Below, one piece after another: positions 13,407 to 19,840 of a stretch of 64,000 nt of DNA (positions within the stretch are counted from its first letter, which is position 1; every line of letters starts with the position of its first letter). The stretch is from Actinoplanes sp. (GTDB lineage: Bacteria > Actinomycetota > Actinomycetes > Mycobacteriales > Micromonosporaceae). The position numbers and the translations under genes were made by a program. The DNA lies in contig JAVHVY010000376.1 of assembly GCA_032160305.1 (NCBI GenBank), forward strand, positions 6,143 to 70,142, written 5' to 3'. The notes under the pieces are model-generated. The model worked only from the letters and a program-made list of their open reading frames with translations. It was not told where the DNA came from and did not search any database.

Positions 13407-13610
13407 ATGGCTGTCGGCACAGTGAAGTGGTTCAACGCGGACAAGGGCTTCGGCTTCATCACCCAGGACGGCGGTGCGCCGGACGTGTTCGCCCACTTCT
13501 CGGCCATCGCCGCGGACGGGTACCGCAGTCTCGAGGAGAACCAGCGCGTCGAGTTCGACGTCGAGCAGGGTCAGAAGGGCCCGCAGGCCAAGAACATCCG
13601 GCTGATCTGA
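13407..13610 (+). CDS. cspA: Cold-shock protein, 67 aa
   Basis: [18 protein letters not shown]...DVFAHFSAI (RNP1/RNP2 motifs); RBS GAGAGGG. Confidence 0.95.
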
Positions 13611-13627
13611 CGTAGTACCAAGCGTGC

Positions 13628-13656
13628 GGGGGTCGTGGCCGATGGTCACGGCCCCC
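13628..13656 (+). terminator. Hairpin downstream of csp
   Basis: GGGGGTCGTGGCC-GAT-GGTCACGGCCCCC, 13-bp stem with two G-U pairs; no U tract. Confidence 0.5.
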
Positions 13657-13680
13657 GACCGTGTCCGCCCCCCGACAGAG

Positions 13681-14424
13681 ATGAGCGGTGTGAAGACGCA
13701 ATCCGGAGCTCCCTACGCGGCAACCACGCACAGCCCGCTGCAGCGGCGCCTGCTGCGCAACGCCTCCTTCCCGCCCCGCCAGGCCCAGCAGGACTCGCTG
13801 CGGCTGCGGGCGGTGCCGCTGGTGCCCGAGATCGATCTCTTCCTCGCCGAGGACCCGGTGCTGCTCTGGGCCCGCCTCGAAGCCGACGCCCACGGCAGCC
13901 TGACCGCCCCGTTCTGGGCCACGGCCTGGACCGGCGGCCAGGCGCTCGCCCGCTACGTGCTGGACAATCCGGAACTCCTCGCCGGCCGCAAGGTTCTCGA
14001 CGTGGCCTCCGGCTCCGGGCTGGTCGCCATCGCCGCCGCCCTGGCCGGCGCGGCCGAGGTCATCGCCAACGACATCGACGAGTACGCCATCGAGGCGCTG
14101 CGCGCGAACGCGAACGCCAACGGCACCCGGATCCACCCCGACGCCCGCGACCTGACCGACGGCGACGGCGGCGACGCCGAGGTGATCCTGGTCGGCGACT
14201 GCCTCTACAGCGCCGAACTGGCCGCCCGGGTGCTGCCGTTCGTGGCCCGCGCCCAGTCCCGCGGCGCGACCGTGCTGCTCGGCGACCCCGGCCGCGGCTT
14301 CACGCCTTCCCACCTGCTCGAAACACTGGCGACCTATCATTTGCCTGCGATGGGTATCGCGGAGGACGGCCAGCACGAACGGGCAAGCGTGTTGACCCCG
14401 GTGAGCACGGTCGCGGTCGGGTAG
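13681..14424 (+). CDS. Class I SAM-dependent methyltransferase (lysine methyltransferase / Methyltransf_16-like)
   Basis: PFWATAWTGGQALARY, SAM motif VLDVASGSGLVAIAA, ILVGDCLY, LGDPGR. Start uncertain. Confidence 0.8.
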   Translation: MSGVKTQSGAPYAATTHSPLQRRLLRNASFPPRQAQQDSLRLRAVPLVPEIDLFLAEDPVLLWARLEADAHGSLTAPFWATAWTGGQALARYVLDNPELLAGRKVLDVASGSGLVAIAAALAGAAEVIANDIDEYAIEALRANANANGTRIHPDARDLTDGDGGDAEVILVGDCLYSAELAARVLPFVARAQSRGATVLLGDPGRGFTPSHLLETLATYHLPAMGIAEDGQHERASVLTPVSTVAVG

Positions 14425-14514: not shown

Positions 14515-15681
14515 ATGATCAAGGTTGTCGGACTGGTCCTGCATCCGCGACGCGACTGCGGGTCGGCGATCGACGCCATCGTCGCCTGGGCCGATTCCCG
14601 CGAGGTGACCGTCCTCGGCCTGCACGACGAGATCACCCGGATCGACTGCGACGCCGTCGCCGTCTCGGCCGAGGAGATGGTCGAGCGCGCCGGGCTGCTG
14701 GTCAGCCTGGGCGGCGACGGCACCATGCTGCGCACGATGCGGCTGGTCGAGGGCCGCAAGACGCCGGTGCTCGGCGTCAACATCGGCCGGCTCGGCTTCC
14801 TCGCCGAGGTCAACCTGCCCGACCTGGCGCAGGCGCTGTCCTCGATCGATCAGCACCAATTCATCACCGAGTCGCGTACGGCGGTGCGCACGGTGCTGCC
14901 CGACGGCCAGGACGTGTCGGCGTTCAACGACATCGCCCTGGTCCGGGTGCCCGGCGACGGGCTGGCCAACGTCGGCATCACCGTCGAGGGCAGCAAGTTC
15001 GTCAACTACGCCGCCGACGCGGTGATCGTCGCCACGCCGACCGGCTCGACCGCGTACAGCTTCTCGGCCGGCGGACCGATCGTCTCGCCGAACGTCGAGG
15101 GACTGCTGGTCAGCGCAGCCGCCGCGCACTCCTCGTTCAACCGGTCGCTGATGCTCTCGATGGACGAGCGACTGGAGCTGGACGTACTGCCGACCAGCGG
15201 CCGGCTCGCCGTCGAGGTGGACGGCATCATCCAGGGCTACGTCACCGGCGGCGACCGGCTGGTGATCACCCCGATCCCGACCGCCGCCCTGGTGATCCGG
15301 CTCGGCGCCACCTCGTTCTACGAGCGGGCCCGGCGCAAGCTGCGGGTCGAGGGCAGCGCCCAGATCCCGTCCGGCGACGCCGCCGACGCGACCGTCGTGG
15401 ACAGCTTCGAGCAGCAGCGCTACGAGATCCTGCTCGGCGGCGAGGTGGCCGGGGTGCTGCACTACCGGCGGCACGGCCTCGGCGTCGATCTGATGCACAC
15501 CGAGATCGACCAGTCGTTCGAGGGCCGCGGGCTGGCCAGCCGGCTGGCCGCCGCCGCACTCGACGACGCCCGCCGGCGGGCCTCACCGGTGACGGTGACC
15601 TGCCCGTTCGTCAGCGGTTACATCGAGCGCCACCCGGAATTCCAGGATCTGGTGGCCGGAGAACGGAGGACTTCCGGATGA
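14515..15681 (+). CDS. NAD(+) kinase fused to a C-terminal YjdJ-like GNAT domain
   Basis: LGGDGT, GVNIGRLGFL, FND, ATPTGSTAYSFSAGGP; C-terminal HTEID...EGRGLASRL...TCPFV. Confidence 0.88.
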   Translation: MIKVVGLVLHPRRDCGSAIDAIVAWADSREVTVLGLHDEITRIDCDAVAVSAEEMVERAGLLVSLGGDGTMLRTMRLVEGRKTPVLGVNIGRLGFLAEVNLPDLAQALSSIDQHQFITESRTAVRTVLPDGQDVSAFNDIALVRVPGDGLANVGITVEGSKFVNYAADAVIVATPTGSTAYSFSAGGPIVSPNVEGLLVSAAAAHSSFNRSLMLSMDERLELDVLPTSGRLAVEVDGIIQGYVTGGDRLVITPIPTAALVIRLGATSFYERARRKLRVEGSAQIPSGDAADATVVDSFEQQRYEILLGGEVAGVLHYRRHGLGVDLMHTEIDQSFEGRGLASRLAAAALDDARRRASPVTVTCPFVSGYIERHPEFQDLVAGERRTSG

Positions 15682-15971
15682 GCGACAGCGTCTGCGCCCA
15701 CCTCGACCAGGTCGAGGACGTCACCCCGTCCGGCGACGGCTGCGTCGAGTGTCTCGAAACCGGCGACCGCTGGGTGCACCTGCGGCTCTGCATGACCTGC
15801 GGGCACGTCGGGTGCTGCGACTCCTCGCCCAACAGGCACGCCACCGCGCACTACCACGCCGAGGACCACCTGCTGGTCACCTCGTACGAGCCGGGCGAGG
15901 ACTGGTGGTGGTGCTACGCCGACGACGTGGCCTTCGAGGTCGCGCACGCCAAGACCTACTCCCATAGCTGA
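15678..15971 (+). CDS. UBP-type zinc finger protein, 97 aa
   Basis: CAHL...CVEC...HLRLCMTCGHVGCCDSSPNRHATAH...WWWCY; ATGA overlap with the NAD kinase stop. Confidence 0.88.
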   Translation: MSDSVCAHLDQVEDVTPSGDGCVECLETGDRWVHLRLCMTCGHVGCCDSSPNRHATAHYHAEDHLLVTSYEPGEDWWWCYADDVAFEVAHAKTYSHS

Positions 15972-15994
15972 ACCTGCAAAGCTGAGGACTCTTC

Positions 15995-17653
15995 ATGGGC
16001 CAGCCCGCGATCCTGACCGTCGACGACGATGCTTCCGTCTCCCGCGCCATCGCCCGTGACCTGCGCCGCCGGTACGGCGCCGACTACCGCGTCATCCGCG
16101 CCTCCGCCGCCGCCGAGGCCCTGGAAGCGCTACGCGAGATCAAGCTGCGCGGCGGCCGGGTCGCCGTGCTGCTCGCCGACTACCGGATGCCGCAGATGAA
16201 CGGCATCGAATTCCTCGAACAGGCGATGGATCTGTTCCCGCACGCCCGTCGCGCGCTGCTCACCGCCTACGCGGACACCGACGCGGCGATCTCGGCGATC
16301 AACATCGTCGACGTCGACCACTACCTGCTCAAACCCTGGGACCCGCCGGAGGAGAAGCTCTACCCGGTGATCGACGCCCTGCTGGACGCCTGGCAGGCCA
16401 CCGGCGACCGGGAGCTCGAGAACATCCGGGTGGTCGGGCACCGATGGAGCGAGCCGTCGTACCAGATCCGCGACTTCCTCGCCCGCAACCTGGTGCCGTA
16501 CCGCTGGTACGCGGCCGACGACCCGGAGGGCCGCCGGCTGCTCGACGCCGCCGGAGTCGGTCCCGAGTCGATCCCGCTGGTGGTGACCGCCGACGGCCGG
16601 GCGATGTCGCAGCCGACCAATTCCGAGGTCGCCGAGGCGGCCGGGCTGTCGGTCGCCCCGGAACGCGACTTCTACGATCTGATCATCGTCGGCGGCGGCC
16701 CGGCCGGCCTCGGCGCCGCCGTCTACGGCGCCTCCGAAGGGCTCAAGACCCTGATGGTCGAACGCCAGGCCGTCGGCGGCCAGGCCGGGCAGAGCTCCCG
16801 GATCGAGAACTACCTGGGCTTCCCGGACGGCATCTCCGGCGCCCAGCTCACCGACCGGGCCCGCCGGCAGGCCGGCAAGTTCTCCGCGGAGGTGCTGAAC
16901 ACCCGCGAGGTGACCGGGCTGCGTACGGACGGCTCGGCCCGGACGCTGACCTTCGACGACGGCGGCGAGGTCTCCGCGCACTCGATCCTGCTGGCCACCG
17001 GGGTCGCGTACCGGCCGCTGGTGGCGGACGGGATCGCCGCGCTGACCGGCTCGGGCGTGTACTACGGCTCGGCCTCCACCGAGGGCCCGTCCTGCGCGGG
17101 CAGCGACGTCTACATCATCGGCGGGGCCAACTCGGCCGGCCAGGCGGCACTGTTCTTCTCCCGCTACGCCCGCAGCGTCACCCTGCTGGTGCGCGGCGGG
17201 TCGCTTGAGGCGTCGATGTCGTACTACCTGATCCAGCAGCTCAACCAGATCGACAACGTGCACATCCGGACCCGGTGCGAGGTGCTCAGCGCGCAGGGCG
17301 ACGGTCACCTGCAGGCGATCACCATCTGCGACGGCAAGAACGGCATGGAGACGACCGTCGAGTGCGGATACCTGTTCGTCTTCATCGGCGCCGAGCCGCG
17401 CACGGACTGGCTGGGCCGCACCGTGGCGCGCGACGAGAAGGGCTTCGTCTACACCGGGCCGGATCTGCTGACAAACGGAACCCGTCCGGCGGGATGGGAT
17501 CGAGACCGCGATCCGTTCTACTTGGAGTGCAGTGTTCCCGGCATCTTTGCCGCCGGCGACGTCCGGGCCAACTCGGTGAAACGGGTGGCCTCGGCGGTCG
17601 GCGAGGGCGCGATGGCCGTCACGCTGGTCCATCGTTATCTGGAGGCGCAATGA
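15995..17653 (+). CDS. Response-regulator receiver fused to a thioredoxin-reductase-like FAD oxidoreductase lacking CxxC
   Basis: REC: VDDD, ADYRMP, LLTAY, LLKPW. Flavoprotein: GGGPAG, GGANSAGQAA, GIFAAGDVR. CxxC position reads YYGSASTEG. Confidence 0.93.
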   Translation: MGQPAILTVDDDASVSRAIARDLRRRYGADYRVIRASAAAEALEALREIKLRGGRVAVLLADYRMPQMNGIEFLEQAMDLFPHARRALLTAYADTDAAISAINIVDVDHYLLKPWDPPEEKLYPVIDALLDAWQATGDRELENIRVVGHRWSEPSYQIRDFLARNLVPYRWYAADDPEGRRLLDAAGVGPESIPLVVTADGRAMSQPTNSEVAEAAGLSVAPERDFYDLIIVGGGPAGLGAAVYGASEGLKTLMVERQAVGGQAGQSSRIENYLGFPDGISGAQLTDRARRQAGKFSAEVLNTREVTGLRTDGSARTLTFDDGGEVSAHSILLATGVAYRPLVADGIAALTGSGVYYGSASTEGPSCAGSDVYIIGGANSAGQAALFFSRYARSVTLLVRGGSLEASMSYYLIQQLNQIDNVHIRTRCEVLSAQGDGHLQAITICDGKNGMETTVECGYLFVFIGAEPRTDWLGRTVARDEKGFVYTGPDLLTNGTRPAGWDRDRDPFYLECSVPGIFAAGDVRANSVKRVASAVGEGAMAVTLVHRYLEAQ

Positions 17654-17724
17654 GCGAGCGTGTCGAGCCATTCACCTGGCACAGGGTGATCGCGGCAAGC
17701 GAAGAGAGTCGGGATCATGAGTGA
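17650..17724 (+). other. Intercistronic 24-codon mini-ORF, possible MIRU-like insert
   Basis: ATG 17650 overlaps the upstream TGA (ATGA); MSERVEPFTWHRVIAASEESRDHE ends inside the start of the kinase gene. Confidence 0.45.
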
Positions 17725-19192
17725 GCCCCAGGCTGTGGAAGCCATCTCGCTCCAGCCCTGCGACCCCGGCAAGCTGACCCGCACCGAGCTGCGCAGCCTG
17801 TTCCTGTTCGAAAAGCTGACGGATGAACAGCTCGACTGGATCGCCGCGCACGGCTGCACCCTGCACGCCCCGGCCGGCAGTCTGGTGCTCCGCGAGGGTG
17901 ACCCGGCCGAGCAGTTCTTCATCCTGCTCAGCGGTACGATCGCGCTGAGCCGGCGGATCGGCCAGGACGACGTCCAGACCAGCCGGACCGAGCAGTGCGG
18001 CGTCTACATGGGCGCGACGCAGGCGTACATCCGCGACGAGGGTGTCGAGCGTAAGTACATGGCCACCATGCGCGCGCTGGACGATGCGGATTTCTTCGTG
18101 CTCACCGCGGCCGACTTCGGCTGGATGATGCGCGAGTGGTGCCCGATGGCGATCCACCTGCTCGAAGGCCTTGCCCTCGGGATGCGCAACACCCAGGCCG
18201 CGATCAGCGAACGGCAGCGGCTGGTCGCCCTCGGCGCGCTCTCGGCCGGGCTGATGCACGAGCTGAACAATCCTGCCGCCGCCGCGTCCCGAGCCACCGG
18301 TGCGCTGCGCCAGCGGGTCGCCGGGATGCGCCACAAGCTCGGCATGCTGGCCGCCGGCAAGGTGCCCGCCGACCGCCTCGACGCCCTGGTCGAGTTGCAG
18401 GAAGAGGTCATCGAGAAGGCGGCGAAAGCGCCGGTGCTGACCGCCATGCAGGCCGCCGACCGCGAGGACGAGCTCGGCGACTGGATGGAGCAGAACAAGG
18501 TCACCGGGGGCTGGGACCTGGCGCCGGTCTTCGCCCAGGGCGGCATCGACGTCGACTGCCTGGGGGAGATCCGGGCCAAGGTGGCCTCGCCGGGCCTGCT
18601 CGACCAGGCGATCCACTGGATCGGCTACGCGCTGGAGACCGAGCAGCTGATGAGCGACATCGAGGACGCGACCGGCCGGGTGTCCTCGCTGGTCTCGGCG
18701 GCGAAGCAGTATTCGCAGCTGGACCGGGCCGCGCACCAGTGGATCGACGTGCACACCGGCCTGGACAGCACGCTGGTCATGCTGACCCACAAGATCGGCA
18801 AAGGCGTCAAGGTGGTCAAGGACTACGACCGCGGCCTGCCCGAGATCCCGGCGCATCCGGCCGAGCTCAACCAGGTCTGGACCAACCTGATCGACAACGC
18901 GGTGCAGGCGATGAACGGTGTCGGGACACTGACCATCACCACCTACAAGCAGGACGACTTCGTCTGCGTGTCGGTCGGCGACACCGGCCCGGGTGTGCCC
19001 GAGGAGCTGCGCCAACGGGTCTTCGAGCCGTTCTTCACGACCAAGCCGGTGGGTGAGGGTACGGGCCTGGGGCTGGACATCTCGTACCGGATCGTGGTCG
19101 GCGGGCACGGCGGGGACATCGTGCTGAACTCCCAGCCCGGCGACACCACCTTCACGGTCAGCCTGCCGATCACGGAGCCGTCCTCGCGTTGA
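17717..19192 (+). CDS. Cytoplasmic sensor histidine kinase with N-terminal cNMP-binding-like domain
   Basis: H box MHELNNP, N box VWTNLIDNA, G1 DTGPG, F/G2 FFTTKPVGEGTGLGL. N-terminal LFLFEKL...VLREGDPAEQFFILLSG. No transmembrane segment. Confidence 0.92.
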   Translation: MSEPQAVEAISLQPCDPGKLTRTELRSLFLFEKLTDEQLDWIAAHGCTLHAPAGSLVLREGDPAEQFFILLSGTIALSRRIGQDDVQTSRTEQCGVYMGATQAYIRDEGVERKYMATMRALDDADFFVLTAADFGWMMREWCPMAIHLLEGLALGMRNTQAAISERQRLVALGALSAGLMHELNNPAAAASRATGALRQRVAGMRHKLGMLAAGKVPADRLDALVELQEEVIEKAAKAPVLTAMQAADREDELGDWMEQNKVTGGWDLAPVFAQGGIDVDCLGEIRAKVASPGLLDQAIHWIGYALETEQLMSDIEDATGRVSSLVSAAKQYSQLDRAAHQWIDVHTGLDSTLVMLTHKIGKGVKVVKDYDRGLPEIPAHPAELNQVWTNLIDNAVQAMNGVGTLTITTYKQDDFVCVSVGDTGPGVPEELRQRVFEPFFTTKPVGEGTGLGLDISYRIVVGGHGGDIVLNSQPGDTTFTVSLPITEPSSR

Positions 19193-19333: not shown

Positions 19334-19840
19334 CTAGAGCAGGCCGCGGACGTAGGCGGCCTGGCCGGCGTGCTGGGTGTCGTCGTTGAGAACGCTGATC
19401 AGGCGCACGCCGAGGGTTACCGGCGGGTCCCAACGTTCGTCGACGACCCGGTCCAGGTCGGCGGCCGACAGGCTGTCGATGACACTCAGCGTGCGGCCGT
19501 GCACGGCGGTGTAGTAGTCCACCAGGACGTGCCAGCTCTGCGGGGCCACCGCCGCGACCTGCGCCGGGGTGTGCCCGTAGCCGATGTCGCCGGGTTCGGA
19601 CTTGAGGCCGAATGGCGGTCCCCAGTCGGCGTCGACATAGACCTGGTCGCCGTCGATCAGGTCCGCCACGTGGTGGTCCTGGACCCGGCTCAGGTGCCAG
19701 ACCAGCCAGCCGACCGGGTTGGCCCAGCCGGCCGGCGCCCAGCGCAACTGCTCCGGGGTCAGGTCCTTGACCGCGGCGCGGACCAGGCCTGGCAGCCGGC
19801 CGAAGGCGTCGTTGAGCACGTCGTTATGGTTCACGGTCAT
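19334..19840 (-). CDS. DinB family / mycothiol-transferase-like protein
   Basis: NPVGWLVWHLSRVQDHH, DERWDPPVTLGVRL, DDTQHAGQAAY; ATGA overlap with the upstream gene. Confidence 0.85.
   Translation of the reverse strand: MTVNHNDVLNDAFGRLPGLVRAAVKDLTPEQLRWAPAGWANPVGWLVWHLSRVQDHHVADLIDGDQVYVDADWGPPFGLKSEPGDIGYGHTPAQVAAVAPQSWHVLVDYYTAVHGRTLSVIDSLSAADLDRVVDERWDPPVTLGVRLISVLNDDTQHAGQAAYVRGLL

Follow-up and report, generated by a model that had tools for sequence, protein, structure and literature searches.

Response regulators of the TrxB type, in which a receiver domain (REC) is joined to a module resembling thioredoxin reductase (TrxR), are counted in all response-regulator censuses and occur in seven phyla, but a reaction, signal or phenotype has not been described for any of them. 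The closest described system is the pair SCO7298/SCO7297 of Streptomyces coelicolor: a 2022 review of Streptomyces two-component systems lists SCO7298 as a TrxB-type regulator with the kinase SCO7297, and gives neither a name nor a function (PMC9739842). The class is also counted in a cyanobacterial census (PMC9953108). The SCO7298 transcript increases after polysulfide treatment, independently of AdpA (PMC9952706), and is raised by acid shock (PMC2631018). Apart from census listings and these two expression notes, the full-text literature yielded no functional study of the regulator class, of its kinase or of the bacterial zf-UBP zinc-finger proteins discussed below, and the statement in a preliminary description of the DNA analysed here, that such regulator-kinase pairs have no assigned function, can be upheld. 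Databases often label the regulator a thioredoxin reductase, against its sequence, and the NCBI/UniRef name of the SCO7298 class is 'fused response regulator/thioredoxin-disulfide reductase'.

We analysed a member of this class in a 64,000-nucleotide stretch of DNA (hereafter 'the window') from contig JAVHVY010000376.1 of an Actinoplanes sp. assembly (GCA_032160305.1). Four genes in the window encode, in order, an NAD kinase fused to a GNAT domain, a zf-UBP protein, the regulator and a histidine kinase (Table 1). The regulator and kinase have the same architecture (REC and TrxR-like module), gene order and kinase type as SCO7298/SCO7297, and Streptomyces regulators are 64-66% identical to the one in the window. 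The locus is a variant of this catalogued, unstudied TrxB-type regulator system, and its distinguishing parts are the NAD kinase paralogue fused to GNAT (NadK2-GNAT, see below), a zf-UBP protein of the type we call A and an insertion that bridges the regulator and kinase genes. From the sequence comparisons presented here, we consider it an even call whether the system carries out a phosphorylation-gated flavin reaction that is linked to pyridine nucleotides and proceeds without a dithiol relay, with the zf-UBP protein as a usual accessory and NadK2 as a facultative one.

A two-gene core conserved across phyla

We scanned for regulators in one genome per species, using an alignment of diverse regulators as the query, and obtained 585 confirmed loci. 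Locus statistics given below as a number of 80 refer to the best 80 of these 585 confirmed regulator loci, which come from Actinomycetota, Cyanobacteria, Acidobacteriota, Chloroflexota, Gemmatimonadota, Planctomycetota and Burkholderiales. A kinase of the same type directly adjoins the regulator in 79 of the 80, so that the pair, which the preliminary description had named as recurrent in bacteria, indeed recurs across seven phyla. When the other proteins of the window were mapped on the same loci, zf-UBP was present in 26 and NadK in five. Unbiased clustering of all open reading frames (ORFs) in the 80 loci revealed nothing beyond the regulator, the kinase and zf-UBP in more than eight loci, and the remaining neighbours were generic (ABC transporter-type ATPase, short-chain dehydrogenase/reductase, extracytoplasmic function sigma factor and major facilitator superfamily transporter). 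The near-constant presence of the kinase, together with the lack of any further recurrent neighbour, thus indicates that the unit is a two-gene system with optional accessories.

Given the number of zf-UBP genes per genome (one to three copies), only about 0.3 of the 80 loci would be expected to contain one by chance. The adjacency of the kinase, the 26 loci with zf-UBP and the recurrence of the NadK paralogue (see below) therefore reflect a grouping beyond chance. The window regulator is 64-69% identical to members from Streptomyces, Nocardia and Amycolatopsis, and regulators of this type occur in roughly 31% of the sampled Actinomycetes genomes.

A flavoprotein regulator with a rebuilt active site

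The receiver domain of the regulator retains all of the expected residues (D10-12, D62, T90 and K113), and is closest in type to the receivers of RpfG/NosR. With regard to the flavoprotein module, the top sequence matches among solved structures are TrxRs (1e-41), but the score against TIGR01292, the TrxB equivalog, is 207.9 bits and thus below the cut-off of 343.45. In the alignment to the TrxR structures 4ZN0 and 5UTH, G358/S359 occupy the position of the first Cys of the CATC motif and T362 that of the second, while E363 is found where TrxR has an Asp next to the second Cys. To define family motifs, we used a set of 97 full-length, diverse representatives (35-58% identity). Neither the window regulator nor any of these 97 proteins has a CxxC on the NAD(P)H domain. 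Instead, the former CATC region reads [FY]YGA...EA in all 97, and the HRRxxxR motif of TrxR is replaced by LVRGxSLxxSMS, again in all 97.

The glycine motifs of the cofactor sites are retained. The FAD motifs (GGGPAG, GGQ and GD) are invariant, at G233, G235, G238, G261-Q263 and G521-D522, and the NAD(P)H motif GGxNSA (GGANSAG in the window), as well as Y357, G358, E363, R400 and S409, are also invariant in the family. This pattern of conservation implies that the cofactor sites are kept and that the former active site is rebuilt rather than decayed. In the NADPH site of the window regulator, HRRxxxR has become VRGGSLEAS, in which R400 alone is retained; R400 is preceded by a beta-strand that ends without an acidic residue. 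By the usual rules for Rossmann folds, an Arg without an acidic residue after the second beta-strand is compatible with NADPH. The site of the regulator thus appears compatible with NADPH, although a preference cannot be read from the sequence. The preliminary description had proposed an NADPH-dependent reductase gated by phosphorylation. The gating part of this proposal fits the intact receiver and kinase residues and the adjacency of their genes, whereas a disulfide reductase of the TrxB type does not fit a protein lacking CxxC and with an altered HRRxxxR; the label 'NADPH-dependent reductase' itself is plausible but unproven.

Between the receiver and the flavoprotein module lies a linker domain (residues 140-225), for which Pfam gave no match even at E = 10. 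An AlphaFold2 (AF2) model of the regulator (pLDDT 86.4) consists of the receiver, a beta-alpha-beta-alpha-beta-beta-alpha fold of the thioredoxin (Trx)/glutaredoxin (Grx) type and the TrxR body, and in Foldseek searches AhpF was the best full-length structural match (about 548 columns). It is from the topology of the model and the fold match to AhpF that we assign the linker, and they suggest a Trx fold. This domain has WSEPS at the position of the CxxC and contains no Cys.

We rejected a description of the whole protein as cysteine-free, because 75 of 80 kinase-paired orthologues share C367, a residue located five positions beyond the site at which the second Cys has been lost. In the wider family, only 19 of the 97 representatives have Cys in this column, and the others have L, M, V or F.

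More distant relatives of the flavoprotein differ in their N-terminal part. Many (P0127, P0140, P0150 and others) have a receiver without the acceptor Asp, and in others (P0178, P0184, P0202 and others) a CNB-like domain replaces REC. The latter form also occurs as a second copy in several Micromonosporaceae genomes, where matches are limited to residues 140-550. Since receivers are degenerate or replaced in these distant members, phosphorylation-based gating is not universal in the flavoprotein family. Rather, the Trx fold and TrxR-like body together appear to form an output that is regulated through different wirings.

A histidine kinase with an FNR/CRP-like sensor domain

The kinase has the N, G1, F and G2 boxes of the ATP-binding domain (NLIDNA, DTGPG, FEPFF and GTGLGL, respectively), and its predicted phosphorylation site, H181, is conserved in all 74 kinase orthologues (74/74). 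Its sensor domain scores 37.5 bits against PF00027, above the cut-off of 27.5, and the preliminary description had treated it as a cyclic nucleotide (cNMP)-type domain. Closer comparison speaks against a canonical domain of this type. The phosphate-binding cassette of cNMP-binding proteins contains a Glu and an Arg (G-E-L...R-[ST]-A), both of which are missing from the window kinase, where the region reads GVYMGAT...KYMATMRA; the region is also poorly conserved among the 74 orthologues. In a search of the PDB, the cNMP-binding proteins PKA, PKG and CAP aligned only to the N-terminal half of the sensor domain. The only match over the full domain (residues 24-154) was DNR, a regulator of the FNR family (2Z69, 3.4e-6). 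The missing cassette residues and the partial alignments make it unlikely that the ligand of the window orthologue is a cyclic nucleotide. We also looked in this domain for conserved Cys or His residues, which could point to heme or an iron-sulfur cluster, and found none among the orthologues.

The HisKA domain was barely detected by Pfam in the window kinase (E = 0.029) because an insert of about 110 residues lies between the two DHp helices. The region in question (18257-18760 of the window; kinase residues ~181-348) has conserved positions around ADREDELGDW.

A recurrent zinc-finger partner

The zf-UBP protein of the window contains 8 Cys and 9 His among its 97 residues. Its best match in the PDB is 2IDA (RPA1320; 1.7e-33), with which it shares the Cys/His ligands. 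A core of GC.[DE]C...W.HLR.C..CGH.GCCD.S...HA..H is conserved in the 26 copies linked to the two-component system, which are located upstream of the pair, divergently from it or after the kinase gene. Two types can be distinguished among these proteins. Type A, comprising the window copy, 2IDA and copies of other phyla, has an additional C6/H8/C79 site and is usually encoded upstream of the pair. Type B lacks this site, has a conserved C-terminal EGPELAP..HP, and is found after the kinase gene in Streptomyces, Nocardia and relatives.

At the level of whole genomes, we examined a sample of 121 Micromonosporaceae genomes (hereafter the family sample), in which 65 of the 66 regulator-bearing genomes encode a zf-UBP protein, compared with 26 of the 55 others. 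Thus, zf-UBP is a genuine recurrent third partner, in line with the preliminary description, which had made it part of the system. As ZnF-UBP domains could be imagined to read a C-terminal tail of the Gly-Gly type, we note that no conserved tail of this kind exists on the regulator or the kinase.

Most Micromonosporaceae genomes have one to three zf-UBP genes, and only members of a subclade at least 60% identical to the window copy tend to adjoin the regulator or NadK2. A second paralogue in the genome under study (contig C312:6795-7049) is approximately 52% identical to the window copy.

An NAD kinase paralogue that favours regulator-bearing genomes

The kinase part of the first gene product has the NAD kinase motifs GGDG (66), NIGRLGFL (89) and TPTGSTAY (174), and its best match in the PDB is M. 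tuberculosis PpnK (1U0R, 5e-35). Its best score against the NCBIfam NAD kinase equivalog, 174.9 bits, is under the cut-off of 299, as expected for a paralogue. The C-terminal part is a minimal GNAT domain that covers the full PF14542 (GNAT_CG) profile (1-80) at 80.8 bits, compared with a cut-off of 30, and matches At1g77540 and YjdJ in the PDB. A housekeeping NadK is encoded elsewhere in the same genome, on contig C496. Since this protein is only 34% identical to the window copy, the latter is a paralogue, which we named NadK2. Members of the NadK2 clade are 54-77% identical to each other and about 34% identical to the housekeeping copy.

With an orthologue threshold of at least 54% identity, NadK2 is present in 36 genomes of the family sample. 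The fusion to GNAT occurs in six of the sampled genomes and is confined to Actinoplanes-like genera; in five of these six, including the genome under study, the fused gene lies directly upstream of the regulator gene. In a second sample, of 401 Actinomycetes genomes (the class sample), NadK2 was found in 25 (6%), and directly follows the kinase gene in 7 of 24 foreign loci. With larger flanks, the order regulator-kinase-NadK2 was confirmed in one family and zf-UBP-regulator-kinase-NadK2 in another; the Microbispora locus L032 has the former order. A tree of NadK2 proteins shows the linked state in four or more clades, belonging to three families; NadK2 is located upstream in two of the clades and downstream in two. 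Synteny alone can hardly account for arrangements that are reversed from one family to another.

The presence of NadK2 is also correlated with that of the regulator. In the class sample, the regulator is found in 23 of the 25 genomes with NadK2, but in only 102 of the 376 others (27%; p = 8e-11, uncorrected for phylogeny or genome size). In the family sample, the corresponding numbers are 32 of 36 and 34 of 85, likewise uncorrected. The preliminary description had spoken of a dedicated NAD kinase and suggested that its co-occurrence with the other three genes be checked. The results uphold a distinct paralogue that is linked to the system in several clades and in two gene orders, but one that is facultative, is adjacent in only five of the 80 loci and mostly stands alone.

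We viewed 20 further NadK2 loci of the family with 8-kb flanks. Four of these consisted of one NadK2 gene located 2.5 kb from a regulator-kinase pair, two zf-UBP-NadK2-GNAT arrangements without the pair, and one lone fused copy with neither the pair nor a zf-UBP gene within 8 kb. Clusters of zf-UBP, NadK2 and GNAT_CG genes with no two-component system on the contig were observed in one Micromonosporaceae genus (L087/L112 and L089/L114), and in three other genomes (L157, L167 and L170) a GNAT_CG gene lies at most 2 kb from an unfused NadK2 gene. NadK2, GNAT_CG and zf-UBP may thus form a sub-module of their own.

Organization of the locus

The preliminary description of four co-oriented, closely linked genes agrees with our analysis, as do all of its domain calls, each of which was recovered by Pfam (Table 1). 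The ATG of the zf-UBP gene overlaps the stop codon of the NadK2-GNAT gene as ATGA, and a gap of 23 bp separates the zf-UBP and regulator genes. Between the stop codon of the regulator gene and the start of the kinase gene is a 67-bp insertion that holds a short bridge ORF, whose ATG lies on the regulator stop (ATGA) and whose TGA lies within the kinase start (ATGAGTGA). In the close relatives L001, L002 and L009, which have no such insertion, the ATG of the kinase gene overlaps the stop codon of the regulator gene or directly adjoins it. The bridge is thus a lineage-specific insertion of 67 bp. Its first nucleotides nearly repeat the start of the kinase gene (ATGAGCGAG, compared with ATGAGTGAG). 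We considered whether the bridge ORF is a repeated, MIRU-like element, and rejected this idea, as no second copy was found in the 6.06-Mb assembly (505 contigs, 91% complete).

Table 1. Genes of the locus and its immediate surroundings, with positions in the window and predicted domains.
Feature	Position	Strand	Length	Domains and matches
Cold-shock protein gene (upstream, co-oriented)	13407..13610	+		
PrmA-like methyltransferase gene (upstream, co-oriented)	13624..14424	+		
NadK2-GNAT gene	14515..15681	+	388 aa	PF01513 2.8e-14, PF20143 9.5e-22, PF14542 8.1e-23; NAD kinase, residues 1-290; minimal GNAT (Acetyltransf_CG), 302-379
zf-UBP gene	15678..15971	+	97 aa	PF02148 4e-12, 46.6 bits (cut-off 22.7)
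REC-TrxR-like regulator gene	15995..17653	+	552 aa	PF00072 6.3e-13, PF07992 4.3e-30; REC, residues 1-135; Cys-less Trx/Grx-like fold, 145-215; TrxR/AhpF-like FAD/NAD(P)H module, 226-552
Bridge ORF	17650..17724	+	24 codons	Read from sequence
Histidine kinase gene	17717..19192	+	491 aa	PF00027 2.4e-9, PF02518 8.1e-24; CRP/FNR-type sensor, residues ~24-154; H-box H181; ~110-residue DHp insert; HATPase_c, 381-486
Mycothiol S-transferase gene (DinB/MST; convergent with kinase gene)	19334..19840	-		NF047843 2.7e-66

In four independent soil-metagenome runs, contigs span the junctions between the NadK2-GNAT and zf-UBP genes and between the regulator and kinase genes without gaps and with 0-6 mismatches, and the bridge insertion is also present in contigs of four metagenome runs. 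The junctions are therefore not assembly artefacts. The sequencing runs that hold the window sequence consist of soil-metagenome DNA only. The G+C content of the window is approximately 70%, and matches of its proteins point to a member of Micromonosporaceae near Actinoplanes. None of the four proteins has a 19-residue Kyte-Doolittle window above 1.5, so all four are predicted to be cytoplasmic; the maximum for the kinase is 0.81, which bears out its preliminary description as a protein without a transmembrane segment.

Upstream of the locus, 13 bp separate the cold-shock gene from the methyltransferase gene, and 90 bp separate the latter from the NadK2-GNAT gene. As the same order of these three genes is found in the Actinoplanes locus L001, the transcription unit may begin upstream of position 14515. 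Downstream, a mycothiol S-transferase gene, i.e. a thiol-redox gene, converges on the kinase gene. Such a gene also follows the kinase gene in L009, and another lies near a NadK2-GNAT gene in L111; this neighbour probably reflects lineage synteny.

Possible functions of the system

With intact receiver and kinase residues and near-constant adjacency of the two genes, a phosphorylation-controlled flavoprotein is the natural reading of the core. In the mechanism that we propose, the soluble kinase, with its FNR/CRP-like domain as the sole sensor, would phosphorylate D62 of the receiver, and phosphorylation would gate an NAD(P)H-linked flavin reaction that involves no disulfide and is not the reduction of thioredoxin. 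Phosphorylation would most likely alter either dimerisation or the packing of the receiver and Trx fold on the NAD(P)H domain, and thereby control the rotation between flavin-oxidising and flavin-reducing domain arrangements that enzymes of the TrxR type need. The zf-UBP protein would be the usual accessory, as a docking partner or a zinc-thiolate switch; its zinc-ligand cysteines are the only cysteines conserved besides C367. The preliminary description had also raised a putative role as electron acceptor or redox sensor, and zinc-bound thiolates are poor electron acceptors. NadK2 would be a facultative accessory, which could enlarge the NADP pool on expression of the putative operon and so tie the module to the supply of NADP(H).

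Several observations weigh against this reading. Two of the three basic residues that bind the 2'-phosphate in TrxR are replaced, so that a preference for NADPH can only be called putative. In many distant members the receiver is degenerate, or a CNB-like domain takes its place. The flavoprotein might also not be a catalyst at all, but a sensor or pseudoenzyme. As for NadK2, it is missing from 75 of the 80 regulator loci; in 16 of the 20 further family loci, and in 13 of the 24 class loci, nothing related was found within 8 kb; and the co-occurrence statistics ignore phylogeny and genome size. A more specific version of the reading goes further, and we regard it as distinctly unlikely: a signal-gated NADP(H) switch, in which the flavoprotein would act as a transhydrogenase or diaphorase. 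Reducing equivalents would then pass between pyridine nucleotides, in the manner of the soluble transhydrogenase (STH), or from NADPH to a non-thiol acceptor. NadK2 would set the NADP pool and might be modulated by the fused minimal GNAT domain; zf-UBP would dock as a zinc-thiolate redox switch at the former thioredoxin-binding surface near C367; and the FNR-like domain of the kinase would sense a metabolite other than a cyclic nucleotide.

If the flavoprotein is instead not a catalyst, it could be a signal integrator or pseudoenzyme that reads the NAD(P)H/NAD(P)+ ratio or the redox state of the cell and acts through contacts with the DHp insert of the kinase or with zf-UBP, not by substrate turnover. 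We think this unlikely, although neither of the two ancestral domains has kept its thiol chemistry anywhere in the family, relatives exchange REC for a putatively ligand-binding CNB-like domain or have degenerate receivers, the kinase insert is conserved, and the 80 loci contain no nearby conserved candidate for a substrate gene. What speaks for catalysis is the strong conservation of both dinucleotide sites and of the remodelled Y357, G358 and E363, a pattern typical of active enzymes, and the identity of 86-93% among regulators across Actinoplanes. The conservation of C367 in kinase-paired orthologues of several phyla permits yet another kind of chemistry, modelled on the reductases of CoA-disulfide, persulfides and peroxides, in which this single Cys, on the helix that once carried CxxC, would form a mixed disulfide, persulfide or sulfenate and detoxify sulfane sulfur or oxidised low-molecular-weight thiols. 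The polysulfide induction of the S. coelicolor orthologue, independent of AdpA (PMC9952706), and the convergent mycothiol S-transferase gene, here and in L009, would fit this proposal. However, the column is seldom Cys in the wider family, the TrxR residue that corresponds to C367 is aromatic and lies five positions past the flavin-proximal Cys, and the S-transferase neighbour is probably a matter of lineage synteny only, so that we find single-Cys sulfur chemistry an improbable explanation.

The automatic annotation as 'thioredoxin reductase (NADPH)', by contrast, is in our view very improbable: names in JGI and UniRef and the best sequence and fold matches, to TrxR and AhpF, point to a true, phosphorylation-regulated TrxR, but CxxC is absent from the window protein and all 97 representatives, TIGR01292 scores far under its cut-off, and a canonical TrxB is encoded elsewhere in the same genome. 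Finally, NadK2-GNAT might be a mere neighbour of the two-component system, placed beside it by local Micromonosporaceae synteny and with no functional tie. The rarity of adjacency among the 80 loci agrees with this, as does the fact that the majority of NadK2 genes are solitary and that no conserved context was found around them; in some members of the family, moreover, NadK2 and the regulator share a contig at a distance of 5-24 kb, as old synteny would predict. We nevertheless judge a mere neighbour to be unlikely, given that at least four NadK2 clades, in three families, show adjacency, at one end of the operon or the other, that NadK2 is almost confined to genomes holding the regulator, and that zf-UBP travels with NadK2 in one genus even without the two-component system. 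A phosphorylation-gated flavin reaction with accessory zf-UBP and NadK2 remains the reading that we prefer.

The fixed two-gene core, the recurrent zinc-finger partner and the NAD kinase paralogue that is nearly confined to system-bearing genomes offer handles on the function of this class, and the link to NadK2 suggests NADP(H) metabolism as a subject for experiments. Once its chemistry were established, a redox flavoenzyme would join the short list of enzymatic two-component outputs, and bacterial zf-UBP proteins would gain their first function. Were the NADP(H) switch to prove true, it would be a new type of two-component output, with direct post-translational control of cofactor redox balance.

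Comparison with known systems

The locus differs from those of Streptomyces in its accessory genes: in the latter, a type-B zf-UBP gene follows the kinase gene and NadK2 is lacking, whereas in the window the genes for NadK2-GNAT and a type-A zf-UBP precede the pair, and the 67-bp bridge lies within it. The NadK2 protein shares all NAD kinase motifs with PpnK/NadK (1U0R), but belongs to a separate paralogue clade. The zf-UBP protein belongs to the same zinc-finger family as RPA1320 of Rhodopseudomonas palustris (2IDA) and the ZnF-UBP domains of USP5, USP16 and HDAC6; unlike the eukaryotic domains, the bacterial proteins stand alone and have no known ligand. In DNR, the effector domain that resembles the kinase sensor is joined to a DNA-binding domain, and here it is joined to a kinase.

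With regard to the flavoprotein, low-Mr TrxB (4ZN0, 5UTH and 1F6M) shares the two-Rossmann fold and the FAD and NAD(P)H glycine motifs at about 30% identity, but in the window regulator CxxC is replaced by G...T and HRRxxxR by VRGxSLxxS, and REC and a Trx fold are added. AhpF (1HYU and 4O5Q) likewise has an N-terminal Trx fold fused to a TrxR-like module; however, AhpF contains two Trx folds and a pair of CxxC centres, compared with one Trx fold and no CxxC in the regulator. The TrxR-type ferredoxin-NADP+ reductases (YumC-like; 3LZW, 2ZBW and 3AB1) offer a precedent for disulfide-reductase ancestry with FAD and NAD(P)H but no redox disulfide. Their similarity to the regulator is weaker (1e-10 to 1e-18, compared with 1e-41 for TrxR), and they keep the HRR and have neither a receiver nor a Trx fold. 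STH is also a flavoprotein of the disulfide reductase family without a disulfide. In CheB, the REC-HD-GYP protein RpfG, the REC-GGDEF protein PleD and REC-PP2C proteins, as in the regulator of the window, the receiver is fused to an enzyme-type module, which it gates in those systems, and not to a DNA-binding domain. What sets the window regulator apart from these is that its output is a redox flavoprotein, a type of output without a described mechanism.

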